From the IMG/VR virus record IMGVR_UViG_3300024946_000002: 64,000 bases of DNA, one strand, 5' to 3'. Under the pieces are notes generated by a model, which worked only from the letters and a program-made list of their open reading frames with translations, was not told the origin of the DNA and ran no database searches. The position numbers were made by a program, and so were the translations under genes. This document shows, piece by piece, positions 29,552 through 44,200 of this stretch (positions are counted from its first letter, which is position 1; each line of letters starts with the position of its first letter). The stretch comes from an uncultured virus (IMG/VR IMGVR_UViG_3300024946_000002). Taxonomy: Duplodnaviria; Heunggongvirae; Uroviricota; Caudoviricetes.

Positions 29552-30033
29552 ATCGCGCCCAACGCCGTCAAGCAGAGCGAAACGAACGCCGTGGCATTAG
29601 CTACAGTGAACGTGTAGTGCCATTACCTGCCCTACTGGATGAATTTACCGTGTTCGATATGCCTCAGTCGATACTTGACCAAATTAGCAATGGCGCTATT
29701 GATGCAATGCAAGGCATTCCGGTATTTAGAGATAACGAAGGCGTTTGGACTGAGATCATTCCGGCACTAGAAGGCTGGATTCTCACCTGGGGAATGATTA
29801 ATGAGCAACTAGGCTTAAACATCAATTTAATGCCTCTGACTATTATCAAAAAACGCTTGCATAGCAATACACCAATCACGCGAGAAAACATTACGGCAGC
29901 ACAAGCATGCATGATTGATTGCCGCAAAGCGTTTAGATCAAGCAAACGTCAGCAAATTGTCAGTATTGCAAAAACAGCACAGACAAAAATATTGATCGAA
30001 ACAAAGTATGACCAAATCGCTCAACAAAACTAA
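29548..30033 (+). CDS. Hypothetical protein
   Basis: MNRAQRR start with ATGA overlap. Confidence 0.65.
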   Translation: MNRAQRRQAERNERRGISYSERVVPLPALLDEFTVFDMPQSILDQISNGAIDAMQGIPVFRDNEGVWTEIIPALEGWILTWGMINEQLGLNINLMPLTIIKKRLHSNTPITRENITAAQACMIDCRKAFRSSKRQQIVSIAKTAQTKILIETKYDQIAQQN

Positions 30034-30048
30034 TCGCATGGACCTTAT

Positions 30049-31869
30049 ATGATCAGACCACAAATGCTGCTTGATATTCATAACGAATTGATCGTTGACC
30101 TGTTTGCAGGTGGTGGCGGTATGTCAAAGGCAATATACATGGCACTAGGTCGCCATCCTGATATTGCGATTAACCACAATGACGATGCATTGAGTATGCA
30201 TCGCGCGAATCACCCTCAAACACGCCACTTTGTAGCAGATGTATTTGAAGTTTGCCCAGATTCTGTAGTACATGGCCGCCCAGTTGGACACCTTCACGCA
30301 AGCCCAGATTGTACGCATCATAGCCAAGCGGCAGGCGGTCAACCTCGTAATGAAAAACGCCGTGCATTGTCATGGGTAGTTGTTCGCTGGGCTGGTCAAG
30401 TAAAGCCTCGTGTCATTACGCTTGAGAATGTTAAGCAGGTTCAAAAATGGGGTCCATTGATTGCTAAGCGTGATAGTGCAACTGGTCGCGTGATTACTTT
30501 AGACAAGTTAACTGATGCCAATGGCAAGGTTACTAACCGCATTGCTGCACCTGGTGAAGTTGTGCCGCGCGAAAAGCAATATCTAATTCCAGACCCTAAG
30601 CGTGCAGGCCAAACTTGGCAACGTTTTATCAAAATGCTTAACAACATGGGCTATGACGTTAAATGCCAAAACCTTGTTGCAGCTGATTACGGTGCCGGCA
30701 CTACACGCGACAGATTATTTATGCATGCGCGTAATGATGGACAGCAAGTAAGATTCCCTGCGCCTACGCACTTTAAAAATCCTAAGCGCGGTCAGAAGCG
30801 TTGGAGCGCTGCGCACGAACACATTGATTTCAGCATTGAATCGCAATCTATATTTGACCGCAAGAAGCCGTTAGCAGAGGCCACAATGCGCCGCATTGCT
30901 AAAGGCATGATGAAGTACGTTATCAATAATGCTGATCCGTTCATCGTTCAAGTAACACAAAGCAGCTCAAACGGTATTCATGACATTAATCAACCATTGA
31001 ACACGATTACCACAGCAAAAGGCGGTGAATTTGCCTTAGCAACACCGGTGTTGGTGCAAACAGGTTACGGAGAGCGTGAAGGTCAATCTCCAAGAGTAAT
31101 GGATATTGGTTCGCCAGTTGGCACAATTGTTGGTACAGGCAAGCATGCATTAGCAATGGCACACCTGCAGCAATACTACGGCGATAAAACTGAATCAGGT
31201 AACGATAGAAGCTCTGGCTTAAAAGGTTCATTGCCTACGATCACTACAGAGAATCGTCATGCATTAGTCACAACGTTTCTTGCTCAATACAACAACACTG
31301 GCAACGGTCAACCAAACCTTGGCCATGATGTACGTGAGCCTGTAAGTACCATCATTTCACAAAGAACTGTTCAAGGCCTTGTTTCTGCCAGCCTACTTGA
31401 GCTTAGAAAGAACGTAGTAGGTTCAGACCTTAACGATCCTATTTCAACGGTTACAACTAGCGGCGCACATCACGCATTGCTTGAATATGAGTTAAGCGAA
31501 GATGTGATTACCGAGAAAGCCTTACGTGTATCAGCTTTCTTAATGAGCTACTACGGCACTGACAACATGAGCAGCGTTAATGAGCCTGTTCCAACTATTA
31601 CCACTAAAGACCGCTTGGCCTTAGTCACAGTTATTTATCAAGGCATGCCGTATCTGATTGTTGATATTAAGTTACGCATGCTTAAGCCTAAAGAGCTTTA
31701 TTCAGCGCAAGGCTTTGATAAGGACTACAAATTCACACATGGCCATGATGGCCGCGCCTTTACCGTAGCAGAGCAAGTTCGCATGGTTGGCAATAGCGTT
31801 TCACCTTATCCGGGCGCTGCGTTAGTTGCAGTTTGCCATGAGGGTGATGAGATGAGATTGGTCGCGTAA
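30049..31869 (+). CDS. DNA cytosine-5 methyltransferase
   Basis: DLFAGGGG, SPDC, ENV, RDRLF and C-terminal GNSV motifs. Confidence 0.93.
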   Translation: MIRPQMLLDIHNELIVDLFAGGGGMSKAIYMALGRHPDIAINHNDDALSMHRANHPQTRHFVADVFEVCPDSVVHGRPVGHLHASPDCTHHSQAAGGQPRNEKRRALSWVVVRWAGQVKPRVITLENVKQVQKWGPLIAKRDSATGRVITLDKLTDANGKVTNRIAAPGEVVPREKQYLIPDPKRAGQTWQRFIKMLNNMGYDVKCQNLVAADYGAGTTRDRLFMHARNDGQQVRFPAPTHFKNPKRGQKRWSAAHEHIDFSIESQSIFDRKKPLAEATMRRIAKGMMKYVINNADPFIVQVTQSSSNGIHDINQPLNTITTAKGGEFALATPVLVQTGYGEREGQSPRVMDIGSPVGTIVGTGKHALAMAHLQQYYGDKTESGNDRSSGLKGSLPTITTENRHALVTTFLAQYNNTGNGQPNLGHDVREPVSTIISQRTVQGLVSASLLELRKNVVGSDLNDPISTVTTSGAHHALLEYELSEDVITEKALRVSAFLMSYYGTDNMSSVNEPVPTITTKDRLALVTVIYQGMPYLIVDIKLRMLKPKELYSAQGFDKDYKFTHGHDGRAFTVAEQVRMVGNSVSPYPGAALVAVCHEGDEMRLVA

Positions 31870-32063
31870 TGGTTAATCCGCACGAAATGCAAAACCCTAC
31901 CGAACTTGGTATAGCGATTGATGTTGTTCTGCGTGCTGCTAAAGAGCATCAAACACTATCAATGGTCATGAACCAGATTGCAGAAAAGCCACGTAAGACC
32001 AAAGAGCAGAGATTGGCTAAGTCTTGTGTGATGTTTTTTTGGAGAGTATGTGATGGAACATAA
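31869..32063 (+). CDS. Hypothetical protein
   Basis: 64-aa ORF coupled to both neighbours. Confidence 0.5.
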   Translation: MVNPHEMQNPTELGIAIDVVLRAAKEHQTLSMVMNQIAEKPRKTKEQRLAKSCVMFFWRVCDGT

Positions 32064-33021
32064 CATTTCCAGCATATCAGGCGGTAAAGATAGTACAGCA
32101 TTACTTTTACTTGCTATAGAGCGCCAGCCAGAAGGCTTGCAAGCTGTATTTGCCGATACTGGCAACGAGCATCAAATTACTTATGACTACATCAAATATC
32201 TACAGGACAACGTGTTTCCTATACGTGTCGTTAAGGCTGATTTTACAAAGCAAATTGCTCATAAGAAAGAGTACATTTTAACCAAATGGAAAGAAAAAGG
32301 CGTAAGCCAAGAGGCTATTGATCGTGCATCAAACGCGATGACCCCAACAGGCAACCCCTTTTTAGATTTATGCCTTTGGAAAGGCAGGTTCCCATCTAGT
32401 AAGGCTGCATTTTGCTCAGAAGAGTTAAAGCGTAACCCAATTATTAACCAAGTACAAAACCCATTGCTTGATTCTGGTGATGATGTAATTAGTTGGCAGG
32501 GTGTAAGGCGTGATGAATCTATAAGACGCGCTAATTTACCAGAGAATGAATTGAAGTCTGTAGGTAAAAATGGTGCTGAACTATGGAATTACAGACCAAT
32601 TTTAGATTGGACTGCAGAAGATTGTTTTGCGATGCACAGAAAGCACAACGTAAAACACAATCCACTGTATGAAATGGGCATGGGGCGTGTTGGGTGCATG
32701 CCTTGCATTAACTGCCGTAAAGACGAATTGCTAGAAATAAGCAAACGATTCCCAGAGGTTATTGAGCGAATTAAAGATTGGGAATTAGCTGTTAAGTTGG
32801 CTAGTAAACGCGGCGCGTCAACATTCTTCCCAGCGCCAAACAAATCAATGCTCCATTTAACAGAAGAGCAAAAGCATGAATGGTCTGCAATGCAAACAAT
32901 TGACAAAGTTGTGCAGTGGTCACAAACAAGTAAAGGTGGCAAGCAGTTTGACTTGTTAAGAGTTGGCGATATTCAAGGTGAAGCCGTTATGTGCACTTCA
33001 ATTTATGGGTTATGCGAATGA
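32050..33021 (+). CDS. PAPS reductase family protein
   Basis: PP-loop SGGKDS, ADTGNEH, FCSEELK, GVRRDES and RVGCMPC. Confidence 0.9.
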   Translation: MMEHNISSISGGKDSTALLLLAIERQPEGLQAVFADTGNEHQITYDYIKYLQDNVFPIRVVKADFTKQIAHKKEYILTKWKEKGVSQEAIDRASNAMTPTGNPFLDLCLWKGRFPSSKAAFCSEELKRNPIINQVQNPLLDSGDDVISWQGVRRDESIRRANLPENELKSVGKNGAELWNYRPILDWTAEDCFAMHRKHNVKHNPLYEMGMGRVGCMPCINCRKDELLEISKRFPEVIERIKDWELAVKLASKRGASTFFPAPNKSMLHLTEEQKHEWSAMQTIDKVVQWSQTSKGGKQFDLLRVGDIQGEAVMCTSIYGLCE

Positions 33022-33161
33022 GCGACTTCACCATAACCAAACGCGCTGATGTAGATATGTCAGAAACGCACAAAAAGGTAAATCATGAATCTAGCAGTAT
33101 CGAAAATGAAAAAGTTCTAGTGTCCTAAGAAAATAAACCAAAGATAAAAGTTACTTTATAA

Positions 33162-33449
33162 ATGTTCAAGTACGTCACCATCTCTAAGTTTTGCAATGAA
33201 ACTGGCTACACAGAGGATGCTGTTCGTACTAAAATCCGTGATGGTGTCTGGCTTGAAAATAAAGTGTGGGTAAAAGCGCAAGACAATAGAATACTAATGA
33301 GTGTTGAAGGATTTAACGAATGGGCAGAGATGGGAATGGTATCCGCAAGGCGTCAGAAACGAGCTACGAACTCGCCTTTACCTATCAAGGCGTCAGGTGC
33401 CGCGAAAGAATCAAGCTCAAGCCCTCCCCCGCTAATGATCGCCGCGTAA
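33162..33449 (+). CDS. Excisionase-like protein
   Basis: KYVTISKFCNETGYTEDAVRTKIRDGVW; overlaps the integrase start. Confidence 0.78.
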   Translation: MFKYVTISKFCNETGYTEDAVRTKIRDGVWLENKVWVKAQDNRILMSVEGFNEWAEMGMVSARRQKRATNSPLPIKASGAAKESSSSPPPLMIAA

Positions 33450-34492
33450 GCAATCACCTTGGTGCCATACTCGACTCTATCGAGAAAGGCACATTCAACT
33501 ACAGCGTAACTTTCCCCGATTCAAAACGCCGCTTCTTATTCATAGAGACGCCAGGCGAAGCTATCAAGATTGAAACCTATCTGGATGACTGGCTTGAAGC
33601 CCAAGAAAAACAGCTCAAGTCATCCACTTACAACGACTACAGAAAAACCGTCAACCATCTCATTATTCCGCAATTCAAAGGCAAGCTATTGCCTGAGATT
33701 AAACGCATCGATGTAAAAAACTGGGTTAAAGAAATGAGCTGCAGTAATAAGCGCATATCCAACATTCTGAGCACATTTAGAATAGCGCTACAGGATGCCG
33801 TTGATGATGAATTAATTGAAACCAACCCACTTTATGGCTGGAGCTACGAAAATAAAGAGGCTCCAAAAAAAGAAAGTGACGTGCAGCCATTTAGCCAGGA
33901 AGAGCAAGAGGCAATACTAAGCGTCCTAGATGGGCAAGCCAGAAACATGGTGCAGTTCTTTTTCTGGACTGGGCTGCGGACTAGCGAGCTAGTTGCACTG
34001 GATTGGACTGACATTGACTGGAAGCGTGGCAGCATATTTATTACTAAAGCCATGACGCAGGCATCAAAAAACATAGCTGAGATACCAAAGACAAATGCCG
34101 GCAATCGTGAAGTGAAACTCTTAGCGCCAGCAATGCAAGCTCTTTTAGATCAAAAGCAATACACCTACCTTAAAAACGCTGAAATATTTCAGAGTCCACG
34201 CTCAGCAGAACGCTGGACTGGTGACCAAGCAATTAGAAAAAATATTTGGGTTAGCGCATTGAAGCTTGCAAAAGTGAGATACAGAAGACCATATCAAACC
34301 AGACATACATACGCCAGCATGATGTTAACAGCTGGTGAATCTATCGCTTGGCTTGCTCAACAAATGGGCCATTCAGACTGGGGAATGTTACGGAAAATTT
34401 ACGCAAAATATATCAGCGATTCTATTCCTGAAGCTGGCAATAAAGCCGTTGAAATGTTCACCGAAAAAGCTGTCAAAAAAGCTGTCATTTAA
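33320..34492 (+). CDS. int: Tyrosine integrase
   Basis: TGLRTSEL, K, YQTRHTYA, QMGH and Y catalytic motifs; N-terminal arm-binding domain. Confidence 0.95.
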   Translation: MGRDGNGIRKASETSYELAFTYQGVRCRERIKLKPSPANDRRVSNHLGAILDSIEKGTFNYSVTFPDSKRRFLFIETPGEAIKIETYLDDWLEAQEKQLKSSTYNDYRKTVNHLIIPQFKGKLLPEIKRIDVKNWVKEMSCSNKRISNILSTFRIALQDAVDDELIETNPLYGWSYENKEAPKKESDVQPFSQEEQEAILSVLDGQARNMVQFFFWTGLRTSELVALDWTDIDWKRGSIFITKAMTQASKNIAEIPKTNAGNREVKLLAPAMQALLDQKQYTYLKNAEIFQSPRSAERWTGDQAIRKNIWVSALKLAKVRYRRPYQTRHTYASMMLTAGESIAWLAQQMGHSDWGMLRKIYAKYISDSIPEAGNKAVEMFTEKAVKKAVI

Positions 34493-34685
34493 GTGGTAAA
34501 TCAACCCCAAACCACCCCAAATACTGGCATTAAAATGACAGCTTTTAACAAGACATAAAACACTTAACTTACTGATTTTTATAACTTTTTACTACTAAAA
34601 AAATGGTGGAGCAGGCGGGAATCGAACCTACGTAAAGCCACGCCTAGCTTAGCTAAATTAAAAATACTGGCAAAAAGCTGTCATT
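34464..34685. repeat. Arm-type site repeats AAAAGCTGTCA around the att core
   Basis: Copies near 34465 and 34477, inverted near 34536, and near 34673 on the far side of the core. Confidence 0.75.
34604..34633 (-). other. att core: 3' fragment of tmRNA (or tRNA)
   Basis: Minus strand ACGTAGGTTCGATTCCCGCCTGCTCCACCA; T-loop and CCA intact, T-stem 5' arm mismatched, no upstream gene body. Confidence 0.8.
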
Positions 34686-34923
34686 CACGTATTTTTTCAT
34701 CTAAGCTAAATTTCAGGAATCAAACCACCGTCCTTTGTTTTATTTTGATTTTCTGTCAAAAATATATCTATAACCAATAATTGCTAAAAAATAATTAAAA
34801 AGAACCTCTCGGAAAAAAGATTTTTATTATTTTCTACTAACCCCAAAGCCATAGCTGGCAATGTGTTGAAATTTGGCAAGTGGGATTTGCACTTTTAAAC
34901 AAAAATATTTATCGAAAAACAGC

Positions 34924-34952
34924 TTGACCTACCACTACATAATGATTTTAAT
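34924..34952 (+). promoter_or_regulatory. Sigma70-type promoter of the accessory locus
   Basis: TTGACC-N17-TTTAAT. Confidence 0.62.
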
Positions 34953-34958
34953 TGATAC

Positions 34959-35140
34959 TAATCGCAATATGTAGTGGCTGATTGTGATTGCGGCCCAATC
35001 TTTTCTGAGGAGATTGAGCCGCTGGGAGGTGGGAATTTACCCCCGAGGAATCGCTACTATAATCTGAACAGATTGTAGAAGCAACGGATAAATTTCCATC
35101 TCCTTTAGTTACTATTTTTTAAAACTAATGGAGAATTACC
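34959..35140 (+). ncRNA. Structured leader RNA / candidate cis-regulatory switch
   Basis: Three hairpins with G-U pairs favouring the plus strand; an alternative stem covers the SD of the next ORF. Confidence 0.6.
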
Positions 35141-35284
35141 ATGGCTAATAAGTCACAAAAAAATGAACATACCAGTTCTAAAGTAGCATCAAAAGCATCT
35201 GCAATATTAAGAGATCCTAAATCAACAGCAGCTGAAAAATCTGTAGCTGGGTCTGCTTTAACTCAAGCAAAAAACAAGAAGTAA
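35141..35284 (+). CDS. 47-aa basic Ser/Ala/Lys-rich protein (below ORF-track cutoff)
   Basis: MANKSQKNEHTSSKVASKASAILRDPKSTAAEKSVAGSALTQAKNKK; GGAGA SD. Confidence 0.8.
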   Translation: MANKSQKNEHTSSKVASKASAILRDPKSTAAEKSVAGSALTQAKNKK

Positions 35285-35289
35285 TCACA

Positions 35290-35316
35290 AGGGGCTTCGG
35301 CCCCTATTAATTTTTC
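35290..35316 (+). terminator. UUCG hairpin, probable terminator
   Basis: AGGGGC-TTCG-GCCCCT then an AT/T-rich tract. Confidence 0.62.
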
Positions 35317-35331
35317 TTAAGGGAAACAGCT

Positions 35332-35775
35332 ATGAATTTAGACTTTGACGCTACATATGAAATACAGGACGCATCTCAAAGATATTTAGATATAAAAAAT
35401 ATCTTTAAAAAATTTGCAGATAGTCTGGTATCACAAACATCAAACAATACGGGCTTTGTTGGATTAACAATTGAACCAAAACTTAACGAAGATCATATCT
35501 TAGCTAGCATTGGTCAAATTAAAATCAGATGTCAATTAGTCACTTATTTATCGATAGATAATCGACTTGAAGGATTAATTGTATTTTTAAGAGAACATCT
35601 TGTCGATAGAGATGAGTTAATAAAATTAGGCTCAATTAATTTCAACCAGAATGGAGATCTTGATTGCAATCTAAAAAATAGCACAAGAGTTTGCAACCTT
35701 TATAGCCAAGCTGAATTTGTTCTTATGCATTACTTCAAAATAGCATTATCTATTGATGTAGATAAGCTAATCTAA
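35332..35775 (+). CDS. Hypothetical AT-rich accessory protein
   Basis: 147-aa ORF with AAGGGA RBS, convergent on the lysis genes. Confidence 0.7.
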   Translation: MNLDFDATYEIQDASQRYLDIKNIFKKFADSLVSQTSNNTGFVGLTIEPKLNEDHILASIGQIKIRCQLVTYLSIDNRLEGLIVFLREHLVDRDELIKLGSINFNQNGDLDCNLKNSTRVCNLYSQAEFVLMHYFKIALSIDVDKLI

Positions 35776-35843
35776 AACAAAGTTTTAAACTCTTCAGCAT
35801 TGTAAAATTTAACAAGGCTGGAGAGCTTTATTAAATATCAAAA

Positions 35844-36419
35844 TTATTCACCGCACTGGTGATTACTACAAACACCATCAATCCAACCACGTGCCAGATT
35901 AAAGTCTGCAGTTGTTACTGCGCACGCCTCTTCGATAACTGATCTTTCAGTATCGGCTCGGTCAAGCTCTCGCCTGCAGCTGGCAAGTCTTTCGGTATCG
36001 CTGGCAATTTCGCCTGTGGTGTTGCGACTACCTGCTTCGAGCAACATGCGGTCAGCATAAGAAGCAATCCTAAAATCAGCATTGGTTTTGTTAGCATATA
36101 AACTACTCACTTTCTTTTGAAGTTGTGCCCTATCAATATCTAAGGCAGCAATGATTGATTTGTACTTATTAATTTCAAGCCCCACAGCCTTTTTCGTATT
36201 AGCCTCTATGATCTGATTCTTTTGCGCCTGCAATTCAGCTTCTTGTTTTACTAGGCCGATATACTCTTTGAAATCCTGCTTTTCATTCTCATAGGCGCTT
36301 TTGTAATGCCAGATTGCCAGCAGCATGAGTACCACCAGCACAATGCGCCAGTGCGTGATTAGTAGCTTGGATAGAGATTTAAACTTACCTAGTAACCATA
36401 AACCCAATTTAATCATCAT
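35844..36419 (-). CDS. Rz-like inner-membrane spanin
   Basis: N-terminal TM then coiled coil; follows the endolysin. Confidence 0.75.
   Translation of the reverse strand: MMIKLGLWLLGKFKSLSKLLITHWRIVLVVLMLLAIWHYKSAYENEKQDFKEYIGLVKQEAELQAQKNQIIEANTKKAVGLEINKYKSIIAALDIDRAQLQKKVSSLYANKTNADFRIASYADRMLLEAGSRNTTGEIASDTERLASCRRELDRADTERSVIEEACAVTTADFNLARGWIDGVCSNHQCGE
35915..36097 (-). CDS. Rz1-like outer-membrane lipoprotein embedded in the Rz-like gene
   Basis: LILGLLLMLTAC lipobox and Pro-rich mature part in an alternative frame. Confidence 0.65.
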   Translation of the reverse strand: MLTKPMLILGLLLMLTACCSKQVVATPQAKLPAIPKDLPAAGESLTEPILKDQLSKRRAQ

Positions 36420-36884
36420 TTAGCGCACCATGTTTTCTGCAATACGTTTAGCCCAGCCACGGCTATAAGTTGGCCATGTTGGCAAGCTAGTCATAAACAA
36501 AAGCCTTGTACCGTTATATTTCATAGATAGAAGATGACCATCTATTTTCATGGCCATAGAAAGCGTTACGTTACCAACCACTCCATCAGCTACAACATCA
36601 AGCGCGCGCTGCAACCATAAAATCGCCTGCTTAACACCTGAGTTTACTGCTGCATCAAACACATCAAATCGCACAGCTTCAGGTAAATCATCACAACGGC
36701 ATCTATCCCAATAATCACGTTTATAGATTAGCTTTGCACCATCCAGTGTTAAATTTTTAATATCAACCGCTGGATATGCACGCTTACTAATTCCGTATTT
36801 AGTTTCACCACCAGGATCTCTCGGATCGTTAACATAACCACCTTCATGAACAATCAGCTTTTTAAACGCATCTTCAAAATTCAT
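36420..36884 (-). CDS. Endolysin, glycoside hydrolase family 108
   Basis: HEGGYVNDPRDPGGETKYGI; LQRAL..VADG peptidoglycan-binding segment. Confidence 0.93.
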   Translation of the reverse strand: MNFEDAFKKLIVHEGGYVNDPRDPGGETKYGISKRAYPAVDIKNLTLDGAKLIYKRDYWDRCRCDDLPEAVRFDVFDAAVNSGVKQAILWLQRALDVVADGVVGNVTLSMAMKIDGHLLSMKYNGTRLLFMTSLPTWPTYSRGWAKRIAENMVR

Positions 36885-37111
36885 TACGCCCTACTTTCTG
36901 AATAAACCTTAAATATAAAACCCTGCAATACTGATATAGGCGCTGTAACTGCTGCGATAATTAAAGCTACATCAGCACCTGTTTTATCAGTAGTGGTTGC
37001 AAATACTGCCGCCCAATTAAATGCTTCCCAAGTCATCCAAACGGTTACATAAAGAACAAATGAGCGAACCGAAATGAAGTTCTTTGCATCAGCCCATTTG
37101 ATGAAATTCAT
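36884..37111 (-). CDS. Putative holin
   Basis: 75 aa, two TM segments, directly upstream of the endolysin. Confidence 0.6.
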   Translation of the reverse strand: MNFIKWADAKNFISVRSFVLYVTVWMTWEAFNWAAVFATTTDKTGADVALIIAAVTAPISVLQGFIFKVYSESRA

Positions 37112-37392
37112 TTTGTACCTCTAGGCACATATAGATCAGCTCTAACTCTCTCTATTTTGTTGTCAACCTGATCAACTTTAGTATCAACTTTTTCTATACT
37201 TGTTCTTAATGATTGCATCTCAGTCTTGATCACCTCTACTGAGATATACATGGCGAACCCACCTGCAACCACCGACATAATCGCTGTTTCCACCAACCGA
37301 ACCGACACAGGCGATTGGATCTTAGGATTTTTCGCAATTAGCCCCAAAAATGGTATGTAGCTAAGTATTGAATGGCAGCTTTGATCGGGCAT
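37108..37392 (-). CDS. Membrane protein (holin/antiholin-like)
   Basis: One TM segment plus coiled coil within the lysis cassette. Confidence 0.5.
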   Translation of the reverse strand: MPDQSCHSILSYIPFLGLIAKNPKIQSPVSVRLVETAIMSVVAGGFAMYISVEVIKTEMQSLRTSIEKVDTKVDQVDNKIERVRADLYVPRGTK

Positions 37393-37412
37393 GTCTAAAA
37401 CCTTTCTTATTT

Positions 37413-37856
37413 TTATTTAATTTTTGTTTTCTCAAAATTCAGCGATAACAAATGCTGAGGTGTAATACGATGGTGATACTTACTATCAAACGGCCTTTGA
37501 CCACCTGCTGCTAGAATGCTGGCCACCAACTCAGCACACGACCATTTATCATCTTCCTGCCAGTTTCGCTTTAGCCCGATACCAATCACACCGAGCCAAT
37601 CGTATTGCTTACCAAGCTGGCCAATCGCAAACGCCTCTGATACATCCAGCTCTTTCACTGGGATATGCATCATCACGGCCTTAGATGACTTTGCTAACCT
37701 ATCGTTAACCTTACCAAGTACAACGCCCTCCCCTGCAATTGCACCGATAAGCAAATTTTCATCAAGCACCAAGTCAACATGGCTATACTCTGACCAGGTA
37801 ATAAACCTGATCAACCATGAGCCAAGATGCCGCCTACGGCTGAATAAGAGCTTCAT
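37413..37856 (-). CDS. Permuted papain-like NlpC/P60 (YiiX/YebB-type) protein
   Basis: YSHV before GKQYD...WSCAELV (His precedes Cys). Confidence 0.78.
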   Translation of the reverse strand: MKLLFSRRRHLGSWLIRFITWSEYSHVDLVLDENLLIGAIAGEGVVLGKVNDRLAKSSKAVMMHIPVKELDVSEAFAIGQLGKQYDWLGVIGIGLKRNWQEDDKWSCAELVASILAAGGQRPFDSKYHHRITPQHLLSLNFEKTKIK

Positions 37857-38445
37857 CTACATACTCCTGTGGGAATCCATCAAGTACGTCATAGGCTTCA
37901 AGTTGTCCAATGGTCATGGTTTGGATGGCTGCACGCTTGGCTTCTGCTACACCAAAAATCACTTGTTCACGCATAACCTGTGCCGCAAATAGCTCACCAG
38001 CCAGTGCTTGTGTCATAGTCACAAAAGAACCGTCTAGCGTTTTCCATTTCAGATTTGCAGGGATGTTTGCGCCCATGATGACCAATGCAATTTGTTGTTG
38101 CTTTGAATCGGTGTCTGAGTGAAACCACTTATCCTGAACCAAGCAGCCGCCATTAGTTTTAACGTAATCACGATGGCTTTTAATCTGTGTCCACAAACGC
38201 TCACGGATAGCGGTTAAGTCCATTGGTGTATTGATATATGTCACTGTTGCGCCGTTGTACTCTTCGGTCACATTGTAGAAATTACGGTTAGCAGGTTGAT
38301 TGGTTGCTACTACCAACTCAAGGCCAAATGATTGCAATATCTCAGGAGATTTATCACCTAATGCGGTAAATGGATAAGAGTTGCCATCAATCGTAAAGTC
38401 CATGCCATCGTTAATATATTGGTTGCTTGCTTCTCTGTAATACAT
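37834..38445 (-). CDS. Tail fibre assembly-associated protein (DUF4376-like)
   Basis: WTQIKSHRD...GG...WFHSD...WKTLDGSFVTMT. Confidence 0.7.
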   Translation of the reverse strand: MYYREASNQYINDGMDFTIDGNSYPFTALGDKSPEILQSFGLELVVATNQPANRNFYNVTEEYNGATVTYINTPMDLTAIRERLWTQIKSHRDYVKTNGGCLVQDKWFHSDTDSKQQQIALVIMGANIPANLKWKTLDGSFVTMTQALAGELFAAQVMREQVIFGVAEAKRAAIQTMTIGQLEAYDVLDGFPQEYVDEALIQP

Positions 38446-38447
38446 GG

Positions 38448-40091
38448 TTAATTCCCTTTTGCGTTCTGATGTTTAAAGGCTGACTTGCTCTCAGGGCTTA
38501 ATATTGTTGCCGTCCAAGTGTTAGTGCCTGATGAGTTGTAACTAGATGATGATGTGCGTAGCTTGAAGCCGTTGGATAGCTTGTCCGCATGCGTACCCCA
38601 TGTGACTGCGTTACCATTAATAGTGAGAGTTTCAGGTGTGCCGTTGCACCAGATGAATGGACCAATAGCATTTGCATTACCTGTGAAGCTTCCTGATTCA
38701 ATCACATCGGTGCTTGTTAGGTTTGCCGTGCATAGTGCTTTGAAGCCAGCAGGTGGTGTGTAGGTGAATGAACGTTGACCGAAGTTGAGGGAGGCACTCG
38801 GACTACCGTTGCCACGCCCTATTGCTGGAAAGTATGCACCGGACGTGAGTCCTGTAAATGCTGTACCTTGGCTGACGTTATTTTTGTAGAATGTTAATGT
38901 ACCGTTGTCAGCGTCAAAGGCCACGCCAATAACATCGCTGGTTGTGTATGCTGCACCATAGGCTATTGATGTACCATTTGTGTACTTTGTCCCATCTAAC
39001 CCATAGTATGCCCAACCATTAGCATCGGACCCAGGATAATTCTGTGTAGTTGCCAAAGAGTTTGAAATCCCAATCATCGGATTAGTGGCTGTAACAGTTG
39101 CTTCCCAATACCATTTGCCTGTTAGCATCCCTATGGTAGCTCGCACTGCTCCGTTAGTAGCACCTTGAGCATAATTCAAATTTGCGTTTGATAGTGTAAT
39201 ATTGGTTCCAACACCAGCATCTAACGGGTTCAACACCGCATAATTACCACTAGGCTGAACCGCACTAGCACTACCATTCCCTGCTGGAACATCCAGCATC
39301 CAGCAATCATTCACGCCAGCAGAGCGTGTGAAGTTTGTGAGCGTCCAGTGATTGTTGTTACCTGACTTGTCGTAACCTAGCGTTGTTGTGCTGGTGCCGT
39401 CTTTGAAGTCTAGGTAAAAGCCGTTTGTGCCGTAAGTGCCTGTATATTTCTTAGCAACCCATTGGCCAGTGCTTGTGTTGATTTCACCGAAGGATGAAGT
39501 CGTATTTTCAGTGACGTTTATTTCTGCTAAATACCCATCAAGCAATCCTGATGCAGTTCCAGCCTCTCTTCCGATATTAAATGTATTAAAAAGGCTTAGA
39601 GTTGTCACTAAATTTTGACTTGGGTCTATCGAACTACTAAAGGTTGTTTCTAAAATCCCGTTAATTTTTACCGTAAATCTTGAGGATGCATTAGCGCTGG
39701 GCGTGTTAACTGTGCATTCAATGTGATACAAAGCAGAAGGGTCTCTAAACACCCTCGAAGTGACCTTCCTTGCTTGATAGGTTGTAAAATAATCGAAAAA
39801 ATCTAACTGATCTGCACTATTAAATTCTATTCCAAAAGCTGTTGTAGAGCCGTTAGATGCTCCAAATATTACTTGTCGAACCCCCAGCGCGCCTCGTTTT
39901 ACCCAAAAGGAAAAGGTTGCAATTTGCCCGCCGAAATTCGAGCTAAGTGTACGTGTAAGATACTGGCTACTAGCCGCACTAAACCGCAAGCTACGCTCAA
40001 TTACGTAACCATTCGCACTACCTCCACCTGACATAAAAAAGCTAGGTGTATAAAGGCTGTAAAGCTTAGAGATAAAGCTTCTAATCATCAC
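38448..40091 (-). CDS. Receptor-binding/tail protein with laminin-G-like and SPRY-like domains
   Basis: SLRF, TFSFWVKR, GTNGFYLDF, GKWYWEA, DVIGVAFDADNG, NFGQRSF. Confidence 0.75.
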   Translation of the reverse strand: MMIRSFISKLYSLYTPSFFMSGGGSANGYVIERSLRFSAASSQYLTRTLSSNFGGQIATFSFWVKRGALGVRQVIFGASNGSTTAFGIEFNSADQLDFFDYFTTYQARKVTSRVFRDPSALYHIECTVNTPSANASSRFTVKINGILETTFSSSIDPSQNLVTTLSLFNTFNIGREAGTASGLLDGYLAEINVTENTTSSFGEINTSTGQWVAKKYTGTYGTNGFYLDFKDGTSTTTLGYDKSGNNNHWTLTNFTRSAGVNDCWMLDVPAGNGSASAVQPSGNYAVLNPLDAGVGTNITLSNANLNYAQGATNGAVRATIGMLTGKWYWEATVTATNPMIGISNSLATTQNYPGSDANGWAYYGLDGTKYTNGTSIAYGAAYTTSDVIGVAFDADNGTLTFYKNNVSQGTAFTGLTSGAYFPAIGRGNGSPSASLNFGQRSFTYTPPAGFKALCTANLTSTDVIESGSFTGNANAIGPFIWCNGTPETLTINGNAVTWGTHADKLSNGFKLRTSSSSYNSSGTNTWTATILSPESKSAFKHQNAKGN

Positions 40092-41171
40092 TTACCCCAC
40101 ATTCGCTAAGTGACCGTCATAGATGAGCGTGTTACCAGCGCCACCGATAAAGCTAATAATGTCGTAAGCACCGTTAGTAGCCGCACCAGCAGTTAACGGC
40201 GGCGTTGCATTCGGGAACTTAAACGCAGCATTCCACGCAAATACTCGCGCAGAAGTATCACCAGCTTTCAGCATGAACTTATACATAGCCTTTTCTGTGA
40301 TACCTGTAGGCGCGCCAAATGTAACGGTGATTGCATTGGTTAGCGTCACCTCACGGATTTGGTCTGCGCCATCGAACGTATAGGTTGAGGTAGTTGATAC
40401 CGCAGCTGTGCCGTTATCAGGCACTTGAGTAGCAGTGAAAGTGTTGGCTACGTTTTTCTTGACGGTATTGGCATCGAAGGCTTGAACGTCTGTGCCGATG
40501 GTTAAACCTAAATTAGCTCTAGCAGTTACCACATTGGCTAAGTCAGATAAGTTATTTGCTTTCAATAATGCAGATACAACCGCAGCTTCTGCCGCGAGAA
40601 CATCAAGCCCTGTTTGTATGCGGTCTAATCCAGTTTGAATTTTGTCTGCTTCTGCATCATTTGCATAACCTAAAGCCTCTATTGCAGATAAAGCCGCAGC
40701 CGCAGCAGAAGATGCCGCCTGAAGTTTGTATGTATTAATAGTGTCTAGGTAATTCTCTGAGGTAACAGAGCTTGATGCAGGCACGACCACGGCACGATCT
40801 GCAATCTCTTTGACTTGCTGAATAAGCATCGTGATTTTATCAAGTGCATTTTCAAACACTTCAGGATAAAAGCCACCTTGATTTTGAATGTCAGTTTCTT
40901 GGGTGTACTCTACGTTGCCTAATATCGTTAGCTTTTCACCTGTAGCTAATGTTGAATAGCTAATGCTACCGCCTGGGCTTGCGTTCTGATCGAGGTTAAG
41001 CGTAACGGTGTAGTCACTATCAAGAACCAGTACGGTTTCAATCTCGTCAACATCTGTGTAGATGACCTTTACATCAGCTTTTGCGAAGGTTTTAAATGTG
41101 AAAGGGAATGATGTAGTAACATCGTTTCCATCGAATGGGCCAGCTTTCCTAGCTTCAGAACTGATAGTCAT
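40092..41171 (-). CDS. Podovirus tail fibre adaptor of phage B
   Basis: GNDVTTSFPFTF and ENALDKITM podoviral anchor; C-terminus shared with 1..637. Confidence 0.85.
   Translation of the reverse strand: MTISSEARKAGPFDGNDVTTSFPFTFKTFAKADVKVIYTDVDEIETVLVLDSDYTVTLNLDQNASPGGSISYSTLATGEKLTILGNVEYTQETDIQNQGGFYPEVFENALDKITMLIQQVKEIADRAVVVPASSSVTSENYLDTINTYKLQAASSAAAAALSAIEALGYANDAEADKIQTGLDRIQTGLDVLAAEAAVVSALLKANNLSDLANVVTARANLGLTIGTDVQAFDANTVKKNVANTFTATQVPDNGTAAVSTTSTYTFDGADQIREVTLTNAITVTFGAPTGITEKAMYKFMLKAGDTSARVFAWNAAFKFPNATPPLTAGAATNGAYDIISFIGGAGNTLIYDGHLANVG
40109..40487. repeat. Direct repeat, copy 2 of 1..379
   Basis: Hand alignment, about 93 percent identical. Confidence 0.95.
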
Positions 41172-41191
41172 GTGCGCAACTCCTTTTGCAC

Positions 41192-41225
41192 ATTTTCTAT
41201 CAGTTATAATTGACTAAACGCACCC
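41192..41225 (-). promoter_or_regulatory. Phage B late promoter motif
   Basis: GGGTGCGTTT-N18-GAAAAT upstream of the tail fibre gene. Confidence 0.65.
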
Positions 41226-44200
41226 TAATCTTTAGGTGGGCCAGAGATTAAAGCATTGAAAATACTCACCCCTTCCACCTCGCCTCGCTCGATTGCTAAC
41301 ATGCCGTCAACCGTTGTATTGATTTGGCCTGCTGGATAGTGAAACAAGATGCCGCCTGCGTTATTTAGTGATTTAAACAAAGGCATATCAACTTCACCTT
41401 GCTCTGCTTGTTGCCCTAGTTTATACACGTCTGCAAAGAATCTTAGTGAAGGTGGACCAGAGTAACCAAATGCATCACCGCCAGTTGCCACATCAACCGC
41501 AACACCTACATCACGCAAGCCAATCATTTGCCCAAATATTGCACTCATTTGCTCTGACTTGTAGCGATTAAGTATGCATTCTGTATCATCCCACGCACAT
41601 TCACCTTTCAACAGATTTTTCAATATCACCGAGTAAATCACTGGCATTACGTTTAACAATATCGCAGTGGCTACAAAATCAGCAAACTCAGCAGGATTGG
41701 TAAGCTTTTTCGTTCTAAAGTTTTCAACGTTTAAGTTATAAAGCGCAGAGAAATAAGAGTAAAAGTTAGTGAATAGCTTCTGGCCTTGGCCGCCTTTTTG
41801 AACGCCTGCCAAGTCTTTAATTTCACCGCCTGTTTGCGTATCAATGACTGTCTGTCCAGCAAACGAATGGGCTTTATTCTCGATAGCTTTACGTTCATCT
41901 TCACTGCCTGCTTGGTCATAATCCAAATCTGCTAACGCTTTTTCATACGCGCCTACATAGGTAGGCATATCAATCATGATCTGCATCTTACTAATCATGT
42001 AGAAATAAGAAGCCTGCAACGTTGTTAGGTTTTTACCAGCACGCACCTGATTCACAATTTCATTAATCTCACGATTTAATGTACGCGCACGGTTACGCAT
42101 CATCGGTGAGTTTTCCATTACCCACTCGTTCGTTTTTACTGGATTTTTCAATACAGTTTTAATGCCATTAGCCACCGCGCCAATGCCTAACCTGCCCCAT
42201 GATTGGAATATGCCAGATGGTTGCAGTAATGCAGTGCTAACGCGATAACCCATACCTACGATTGATGTACCTGTTCTAATGCGTGACAAAAGCACATCAG
42301 TTGTACCAGTCACAGGCGCATCACCTATCGCTACATCACGAATGTGTTGATGAATTTCCTGTAAGGCTTCAGCCCCTAAACGTTCACGAATGCTTCCATC
42401 AAGCGCAGTCACTACGCGCGTTGCATCGGTTAACCATTCTTGCCATGCTAACCTATGCGTGACTTCATGAATATGGCGTGAAATGGTATCAAAGCTTAAT
42501 AGTATTGGTCTGCCTTTGACTGCCTCAGCCCTCGCTTGCGTATAACCATCGCGCGTGCCTGAGCTATTAAACGCACCTTTCATTGCCATCCGCAAATCAG
42601 TCACCGCTTCCAAACTCTCTGAGCGTGTGGACATTTGCGCATCATACTTAGCAGGGAAATAACCACCAGCATAAGTGCCGTACTTGGTATTCACAGGCGA
42701 TGGGTCAATCCATACTGGTTCACGGCCTGTGAGTTTACGCTCTTGTTCAGCAATCATCGGCTTGAATGTTGCGATGTAATCCCATGTGCCTTGAATAAAA
42801 TCCCATTCATCCTTAGTAATGGTATCTAAAATAGCTGATGCATCTTCGTTGCTAATTGATCGCGTACCTTCTAAGCCACCATCAAGTAAACGTTGACGGT
42901 TGCCATCATTACCCCAATTCATAGCAAACATAATGCGCTGTTCATGGGTAAGGCTGATATTCGTACCAGGCACTATGCGTTTAATTGCATACAAGTTACC
43001 GACTGCCTTATCTAGTGTGCCTTCAATCGTAGCAAATAGGCGTTGCATATCATCAGTCGCCTTAGCACGTAAATCAGTTTCAAGGCTTCCTGCTTCATAC
43101 ATAGAATATAAAAGCATATCCTGCATCACACCTAAGTCTTTACCACCATCCAACTCACGCATAAAGCTTGAGAATTTACGGTGCGCTGCAGAAAAGCGTC
43201 TGCCAAATCTAGCCGTTTTACCAATAAAGTCATTCGGTGTTGCACGCTCTGGCACAATGCGATTGCCATTATTATTAATTGATTCTCGCGCTTCAGTCAT
43301 GCGCTCAGCAAACTCACGCTTGTCTTTAGCCGTTAGCAGTGTTTTCTTTAATCGACCTAAGTGTTCAATGTTGCGGATAGAATCAGCCAGTGCCATGAAT
43401 TGCTCAAACGGCAGGTCTTTATAACTGGTGCGCCTTGCTTCATTTAATAAATCTTCATCAATCACTGGTGATAAGCCAATTTCTTTCTGGCCTTCTACCC
43501 ATTGCACTAACGATTTTCGTTTATTGATAGCACGTAACGATTGGCCTGAACGTAAATCAAACCTCATTAAAATGTCATCAATCTGCTCAATATATTCAAT
43601 ATCAAGGTTCTTGCGCACGCCCTCGCTGTCAAACTTCTTAAAGTATTTAAGCGTAGCATCTACCTTATCATTCGCATCTAGCGTGGCCTTTGCTGCACGG
43701 TTATTCAATAACTGATCGCGCTTAGCTTGCACCGCAGTTTGCGTATCACCTTTTCGCGTTGCTTTATCTGCCATTTTTGCCGATTTAGATTCAGCCCTAG
43801 TGAATTTAGATGACTTCAAATCACGGACTAATGTGCCAGCAATTTGACGATTGGCATACTCTTTCGCTGCCGCCTCTAATATTCTGCGATTGCCTAGTGC
43901 TTTATTCTGCGCAGATAGCTCAGTTGCTAATACTCTTGCACGCACTTCGTTATGCACGGCCTTATCAGCCGCTTCGTTCATTTTCTTAGCATCAACCAAA
44001 TCCCCAAACTCAGCCAGCATGCGCTCATTCGTTAATCGCTCAACCAATGCTTTAGGATTCTCAGCCGCTAGTAATGACTTTACTAGATGATCGCCACTGT
44101 TAAAGCCGAATAGTTCCGCTACCGCATCAGGTGGATTGCCTGTTTGCATCACCATGCCAGTGCGACCTATGCCAAGATTACGCCAATCACCATCTTCGCC

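Follow-up and report, generated by a model that had tools for sequence, protein, structure and literature searches.

A portable promoter and structured leader with a predicted shared anti-Shine-Dalgarno strand in a variable cargo slot of a temperate phage

A small expression cassette lies beside the attachment site of an uncultured member of the Caudoviricetes, in a 64,000-nucleotide stretch of viral DNA (IMG/VR record IMGVR_UViG_3300024946_000002) that is referred to here as the window. The cassette appears self-contained and would comprise a sigma70-type promoter, a leader of ~182 nt ahead of the start codon, a ribosome binding site (RBS), a small open reading frame (ORF) and a terminator (Table 1). 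The leader is a genuine, conserved, structured RNA read from the plus strand, and it is used in front of two unrelated ORFs. We put the probability at about 0.5 that the unit is a moron expression cassette whose cis-acting leader sets translation through a single strand complementary to the Shine-Dalgarno (SD) sequence, the anti-SD strand, which is shared between alternative helices. A regulatory role for the leader, and any switching between its folds, we infer from the pairings and predicted energies described below.

Table 1. Features of the cassette and its surroundings, with positions counted along the window
Feature	Position	Strand	Description
Tyrosine integrase	33320-34492	+	Adjoins the att core
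attP core, tmRNA (ssrA) 3' end	34604-34633	-	Partial Rfam matches to tmRNA and tmRNA_permuted
Conserved upstream segment	34866-34923	+	5' boundary of the shared module; A-rich before the -35
Sigma70-type promoter	34924-34952	+	-35 TTGACC (34924-34929), 17-nt spacer, -10 TTTAAT (34947-34952)
Inverted repeat CCACTACATAATG / CAATATGTAGTGG	34932-34944 / 34965-34977	.	12/13 complementary; flanks the -10 and the start site
P1 hairpin	34960-34989	+	AATCGCAAT (34960-34968) with ATTGTGATT (34981-34989), 9 bp including 1 G-U
P2 hairpin	34990-35022	+	14 bp
P3 long stem	35024-35039 with 35089-35104	+	5' arm GGGAGGUGGGAAUUUA (anti-anti-SD); encloses P4
P4 hairpin	35051-35084	+	GAAC loop; inside P3
Anti-SD strand UCUCCUUUAGUU / SD partner AACUAAUGGAGA	35099-35110 / 35123-35134	+	11/12 paired; covers GGAG 35130-35133
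47-aa ORF	35141-35284	+	phrog_5079 member, predicted two-helix hairpin
Intrinsic terminator	35290-35316	+	AGGGGC-UUCG-GCCCCU (35290-35305), then a T-rich tail; 3' boundary of the shared module
147-aa ORFan	35332-35775	+	Second cargo gene of the slot; 4 clusters only

The -35 element and the 17-nt spacing of the promoter are the same in all four leaders that were found, and the -10 is TATAAA in one of them (L013). The promoter was unlisted by a consensus promoter scan because the scan rule requires an A at position 2 of the -10. Transcription probably starts near 34959, to judge from the sequence. Similarity between the window and L013 begins near 34866. In run X4, loose contig ends fall at 34866 and 34901, and a variant diverges at 34947. 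A sigma54 promoter at 34871-34889 was considered and rejected; its GG-to-GC spacing is 2 bases too long for the sigma54 consensus and the GG is missing in L013.

The predicted fold of the leader starts with a 5' hairpin (P1), followed by another hairpin (P2) and by a long stem (P3), which would cap a near-invariant hairpin (P4). The core of P3 (35025-35039 with 35089-35103) is paired at 15 of 15 positions, two of them G-U. On the plus strand, positions 34959-35143 fold at -66.5 kcal/mol with a z-score of -6.59, and none of 200 shuffles did as well, while the minus strand reaches -57.1 kcal/mol (z -5.46), a difference of 9.4 kcal/mol in favor of the plus strand. The z-scores over the whole 358 nt are -5.05 for the plus and -3.75 for the minus strand. 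The assignment to the plus strand is right, because nine G-U pairs in the fold of the window would be C-A mismatches on the minus strand. The single-sequence minimum free energy (MFE) folds of the window, L172 and L191 follow the same plan of P1, P2 and P3 enclosing P4; the MFE fold of L013 has P2, P4, a shifted P3 and, instead of P1, a long-range helix. This helix, predicted by RNAalifold, joins the P1 loop at 34974-34980 (GUGGCUG) to 35106-35112 (UAGUUAC), and two of its G-U pairs become G-C in L013. The sequence-only reading had described a good sigma70 promoter, two hairpins, a long stem around an inner hairpin and G-U pairs favoring the plus strand, and each of these elements stood where it had been placed. 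That description had missed the inverted repeat around the -10, the loop-to-strand helix and a 35-nt conserved block containing a perfect TATAAT.

The architecture is conserved across the four leaders. When they were aligned, 95% of the cells were able to pair, compared with 42-48% when the partners were slid. Two P1 pairs differ at both positions when the window is compared with L172/L191 (A-U to U-A and U-A to C-G), and in P2, where 98% of the alignment cells are paired, one pair changes from C-G to U-A in L013. The changes in P3 of L172/L191 are one-sided only (G-C to G-U), and 7 of the 15 aligned P3 pairs are broken in L013, where the MFE fold uses the shifted register. The least variable part is P4 with its 3' flank: 34 of 35 columns are invariant at 35055-35089, and 10 of the 13 P4 pairs show no variation at all. 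Plus-strand scores of the covariance model are 150-216 bits, and no minus-strand score exceeds 26 bits. Covariation, which had been proposed as a check on the structure, gave a mixed answer. The architecture is kept in all four leaders, but the double-sided changes amount to three pairs, two in P1 and one in P2, and 41 of 500 shuffles reach as many. The covariation is therefore supportive and not significant, the more so because the structure was derived from the same four sequences, and four leaders are too few for proof of a conserved structure. A leader peptide was rejected as an explanation, since L013 has indels of 1, 2 and 3 nt that interrupt the 34-aa GTG frame at 34974-35078.

Four copies of the leader were found, one in the window and the others on three metagenome or virus contigs (L013, L172 and L191); they represent about three lineages, as the L172 and L191 leaders are nearly identical to each other. 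The promoter, leader and RBS of the window recur in L172 and L191, where they extend to the ATG of a DUF1508/YegP-like ORF (66 aa, E 3e-13, and 69 aa, E 5e-14, respectively). Because it is joined to at least two unrelated small ORFs, the conserved entity is a portable front end made up of the promoter, the leader and the RBS. The proposal that the leader controls the 47-aa protein specifically does not hold, as it also precedes the DUF1508 ORF and is present in only one of 160 other loci of the 47-aa family. That locus is L013, with 76% identity over 227 nt by blastn, and the covariance model found no leader beyond L013 in the same 160 phrog_5079 loci. The idea that members of the 47-aa family generally have a structured leader was likewise rejected: the median z-score of the upstream regions is -1.19 over 90 distinct regions, scored from 90 of 161 sources after 71 were dropped (no anchor motif or start codon, position near the locus end, or duplication). 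The most extreme of these regions (L066) is an upstream terminator.

The leader is rare. A pattern for its conserved hairpin returned 24 loci from the metagenome collection, of which three are true leaders (L172, L191 and L171, the last being the L013 contig again) and 21 belong to an unrelated coding stretch. The exact 33-nt P2 string has 0 matches in IMG/VR, and four further DNA patterns searched there hit nothing except the L013 contig and unrelated places. The leader is missing from two IMG/VR relatives of the DUF1508 ORF, blastn gave no match to the leader slot in cultured phages, and the covariance model (R1), run over ~1.13 Mb from 202 sources, returned no leader besides the known four. 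A sample of 400 scored genomes of the class of G002 (one more was unscored) yielded two matches only, of 29-35 nt, and these score at most 4.6 bits with R1. Run X2 contains a relative that is ~86% identical across the leader (34603-35136) and was left out of the four-sequence alignment. No Rfam 15 family reached its gathering score in the leader, in searches covering window positions 30000-40000 (E up to 10), L013, L172 and L191, which agrees with the earlier claim of an unannotated RNA. The best Rfam match nearby is to isrK (RF01394), a prophage-borne Hfq-binding small RNA; it is weak (20.3 bits, where the gathering score is 50; E 0.71) and covers the end of the ORF and the terminator at 35228-35310, not the leader. 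A literature search found no RNA motif work on DUF1508 and nothing relevant on moron leaders. The leader is a candidate for a rare cis-regulatory RNA family that is absent from Rfam.

The preferred reading turns on the 3' arm of P3 and the bases next to it. This strand is complementary to three stretches, namely GGAGG in the 5' arm of P3, the loop of P1 and the SD region. It is proposed to act as an anti-SD strand whose partner would be the SD of whichever ORF follows. Formation of P3 and the P1-loop helix would release the SD, and in their absence the SD would be occluded. Because the anti-SD strand has alternative partners, the leader may set, and possibly switch, the initiation of cargo translation. 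In silico, 35099-35110 can pair either with 35123-35134 or with 35025-35029 and 34974-34980, as in an expression platform, and the anti-SD/SD hairpin is present in both the MFE and the centroid of the 358-nt fold. In the window the fold with the SD occluded (OFF) has a predicted energy of -68.5 kcal/mol and the MFE is -69.0 kcal/mol, a gap of 0.5 kcal/mol, where differences of 1-2 kcal/mol fall within the error of the energy model. For the window the OFF fold has a predicted probability of 0.20 at 37 °C, falling to 0.15 at 20 °C; for L172, L191 and L013 the value at 37 °C is 0.03-0.04. In none of the four sequences is the SD predicted to be mostly free (probability 0.01-0.08). The SD region is GGAG in the window and AAGGA in L172/L191. 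At alignment column 150, which lies in the anti-SD strand, a C to U change in L172/L191 keeps the P3 pair with G68 as G-U in place of G-C; the same single event makes a new A-U pair with the SD side (columns 150/180, C-G to U-A). The claim that two folds compete for one anti-SD strand was borne out: the competition is real in terms of sequence and plausible in terms of predicted energy. The balance between the folds might be shifted by a factor bound to the invariant P4 block, by the order of co-transcriptional folding or by a second start within the leader.

Control of translation by alternative anti-SD pairings is well known from translational riboswitch platforms, the lambda cIII mRNA and the rpoS leader. 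The present leader resembles these in that an SD-complementary strand is common to two exclusive helices, in the close fold energies seen in the window and in being a long, multi-stem leader. It differs from them in that the leader in the window matches no Rfam family and is known only from phage cargo slots, in four places.

A passive leader is the alternative that survives best, and we regard it as unlikely. Here the leader would be a fixed 5' untranslated region (UTR) in which P1 guards against 5'-end-dependent decay and P3 sequesters the stretch complementary to the SD, so that the cargo is expressed constitutively in lysogens. Hairpins at the 5' end do stabilize mRNAs, as in the ompA leader, and P1 begins at the second base of the predicted transcript. 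Additionally, the P3-type fold dominates the ensemble in L172, L191 and L013, and the 5' side of the P3/P4 internal loop lacks aptamer-like conservation, with a 3-nt insertion and several changes in L013. A passive role leaves unexplained, however, why a 35-nt block is almost free of variation, why the anti-SD complementarity tracks the changed SD in L172/L191 and why the two folds of the window are nearly equal in energy.

The sequence-only reading called the leader riboswitch-like or protein-sensing. That label goes beyond the evidence, given that there is no Rfam match, that only four sequences are available, that their covariation is not significant and that the OFF fold is predicted to make up only 3-4% of the ensemble in the relatives. 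It is quite doubtful, on present evidence, that the leader belongs to a new class of sensing RNAs in temperate phages, in which a metabolite or a phage or host protein would switch the translation of recombined cargo. Under such a scheme the P1-loop helix, P2, P3 and the invariant P4 block would form the core, and the whole might serve morons as a portable front end of sensor plus RBS, a scheme that we rate no higher.

It is also very unlikely that the leader is a dual-function or trans-acting small RNA, whose structured part of ~150 nt would act on host or phage targets through the invariant block with the ORF merely co-transcribed. Several features would suit such an RNA, including the retention of the leader while the downstream ORF is exchanged, the almost invariant 35-nt block and a U-run at 35116-35121 after the long-range helices. 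Against it, a consensus scan found no terminator-like site between leader and ORF, and the RBS region belongs to the conserved leader up to the ATG. The leader sequence is present in RNA libraries, and the contigs there continue from the leader into the ORF: those of metatranscriptome run X6 show 0 differences from the window over 35009-35274 and 35287-35511, and one of run X10 shows 0 differences over 35065-35284. Neither run has contigs over 34500-34958 or 35520-36000, where missing cover is not evidence. Such assembled contigs reveal neither the ends nor the strand of a transcript, and RNA libraries can contain DNA, so they only hint at transcription in nature.

A 22-nt string of the invariant block recurs, identical and in the same sense, within a conserved coding stretch (..KTYKSEQILEAEAIW..) that belongs to an unrelated gene of freshwater phages. 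The identity occurs in 21 metagenome loci (L170, L173-L190, L192 and L193) with 17 distinct sequences, and could be due to chance. It might be taken to favor a trans-acting RNA, but the match is same-sense and not antisense, and one chance family in 241 million records is not unlikely.

Some of the conservation in the leader may act on DNA, since a perfect TATAAT lies in the most conserved block and the promoter lies inside an inverted repeat. The two arms of this repeat are separated by 20 nt, and the right arm doubles in the RNA as the P1-loop strand. Its position around the -10 makes it a candidate operator, and its outer 6 bp are kept in L013 with a paired change (CCACAA / TTGTGG). The consensus scan also lists a promoter-like site, TTTACC-16-TATAAT, at 35036-35063 within the invariant block, with 10 of 12 consensus matches. 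An extreme form of this view, in which an operator and a second promoter are the conserved signals and the RNA folds are largely incidental, seems to us improbable. The 12/13 complementarity of the repeat and the inner promoter-like site speak for it; against it stand the advantage that the nine G-U pairs give to the plus strand and the compensatory changes in P1 and P2, which lie away from the operator and inner-promoter sites. Moreover, the spacing of the inner site grows from 16 nt in the window to 19 nt in L013, and in L172 the repeat is degraded to 8/13 although the leader is intact.

The cargo of the window, the 47-aa ORF, belongs to a real and conserved family of non-hydrophobic proteins. 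A profile search matched residues 8-47 to phrog_5079 (E 7e-14, 52.7 bits), and no Pfam, NCBIfam or PADLOC family matched the protein. The family comprises 88 clusters at E <= 0.01 among 102 candidates, has the invariant core TSxxVASKASxxL...KSVAGSALxQ and is encoded in 317 viral and at least 528 genome stretches from many phyla. AlphaFold2 predicts helices at residues 13-24 and 30-43 with a mean pLDDT of 76.6; the protein is rich in Lys, Ser and Ala, and the helices are of amphipathic length without a hydrophobic stretch. Members of phrog_5079 are 55-83% identical between very distant phyla, including one archaeal genome (L144), and the proteins have an internal two-fold repeat, with four repeats in some (80 aa, P0017). 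Diverged members were also seen in RNA runs X6 and X10. Of 161 sources, 40 have a Peptidase_M78 protein near the family member and 24 have a Bro-N/ANT antirepressor there, a neighborhood typical of prophage immunity regions.

A long folded 5' UTR, an occluded SD and a very small ORF on a mobile element are also the hallmarks of type I toxin mRNAs such as hok, tisB and zorO, and the cassette shares all of them. It differs in that the ORF is hydrophilic with no predicted membrane helix, as the sequence-only reading had argued from its composition, and in that the leader also serves the DUF1508 ORF. A scan against consensus sequences found no antisense promoter-like site on the minus strand between 34900 and 35320. 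Neither the hydrophobic membrane toxin nor the antisense RNA of a type I toxin-antitoxin system was therefore found.

The UUCG hairpin that closes the unit, as the sequence-only reading had noted, is part of the intrinsic terminator. The terminator is kept in L013, and the similarity to L013 stops just past it. The 147-aa ORFan beyond it may be reached by read-through, and the identical X6 contig at 35287-35511 extends into it. It has only 4 clusters among 5.8 billion proteins; as the 1325-nt contig of one of them matches the size of contigs with homologues of the 47-aa protein, the 47-aa and 147-aa ORFs may travel together as a pair.

The unit had been placed beside att, and this is where it lies: the 25-nt tmRNA 3' end at 34604-34628 is present as a single copy in the window next to the integrase, and it recurs beside leader-type slots in L172, L191 and L198. 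The leader begins ~330 nt from this core. Two further repeats are found beside the core, a direct repeat (CTTAGCTAAATT / CTAAGCTAAATT, at 34648-34659 and 34701-34712) that is also part of an inverted pair (34645-34657 / 34696-34708); the arrangement resembles the arm-type sites of integrases. On the far side of the unit the 147-aa ORFan is followed by minus-strand Rz/Rz1, endolysin and a 74-aa holin candidate without a family match. In the window, L172 and L191 the unit is flanked by a tmRNA-type att core and Rz; its flanks in L013 are an integrase of a different type and a Dam-type methylase. The viral contig L198 has the order Rz, 88-aa ORF, same att core, same integrase and xis. Because L198 repeats the order in one viral contig, the window reads as one phage genome with an internal attP, and tandem prophages, which had been considered, were rejected on that same order of Rz, cargo, att core, int and xis. 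The other cargo of such slots includes a 213-aa predicted membrane protein in L172 (577-1218, minus), behind the DUF1508 ORF, and the 88-aa ORF of L198 (4609-4875, minus), neither with a Pfam match.

The order of int, attP core and leader in the window, with int and the leader both on the plus strand, recalls lambda sib, a downstream retroregulator of int that acts only when the phage is not integrated, but a leader that destabilizes read-through int transcripts only in the non-integrated phage can be dismissed as highly improbable, because the leader follows a conserved promoter of its own and leads into an ORF, the integrase points away from it in L013 (adjacent) and L172 (neighboring), and ~330 nt separate it from the core.

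The nearest phage genome to the window (G001, 43.9 kb, with terminal repeats) is 100% identical over 41340-64000 and 99.7% over 37432-41339, and it lacks the unit: Rz is directly followed by a different integrase. The leader is likewise absent from all nine IMG/VR phages with a related Rz. While its structural genes are identical to those of the window, G001 has a different integrase of 393 aa with a P4-like N-terminus, and another attP straight after Rz (L197, 1875-3344). Integration module and cargo slot have been exchanged between the window and G001 as one block. Elsewhere, positions 1-391 of the window are 92% identical to G001 40841-41231, a region that is also found in the window near 40100-40500 at 99.7%, which makes the former a second, diverged copy of a segment from the tail-fibre region.

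Phage morons are genes that sit among the backbone genes and carry a promoter and a terminator of their own. The unit has its own promoter and terminator, lies between backbone genes and is absent from G001 and from the nine relatives by Rz; it is a moron cassette, and the variable slot that it occupies has the lysis genes on one side and attP on the other. It is like other morons in these respects and in that the cargo varies, and it differs in having a conserved front end, composed of the promoter, a structured leader of 182 nt and the RBS, which is used again with unrelated ORFs. A further parallel is offered by the promoter-early stem-loop (PeSL) cassettes of T4-type phages, which are described as stem-loops with a strong sigma70-like promoter that flank non-essential ORFs in variable regions and are associated with gene shuffling, the stem-loops being transcription terminators next to the promoter (PMC2839356). 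Both are small, conserved cassettes of promoter and stem-loop at non-essential ORFs in a variable region; in the present case, by comparison, the stem-loops lie downstream of the promoter, within the mRNA leader, and reach the RBS, and the phage is temperate and not T4-like. PeSL cassettes, as characterized there, pair a promoter with a terminator stem-loop in many copies per genome (PMC2839356); the window holds one copy.

The leader cassette is a genuine but rare element of a familiar kind. Of the functions considered for the leader, tuning of translation through the shared anti-SD strand is the most likely, at about even odds. Morons are usually seen as a promoter, a gene and a terminator, and here a long folded leader joins the portable front end. 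Its reuse for unrelated small genes would place the cargo of slots at prophage ends under post-transcriptional control in addition to that of the promoter. Should the leader prove to be a sensor, it would represent a control part that is both compact and transferable, and it would offer a lead to the timing with which lysogens produce phrog_5079 and DUF1508, two widespread small proteins.
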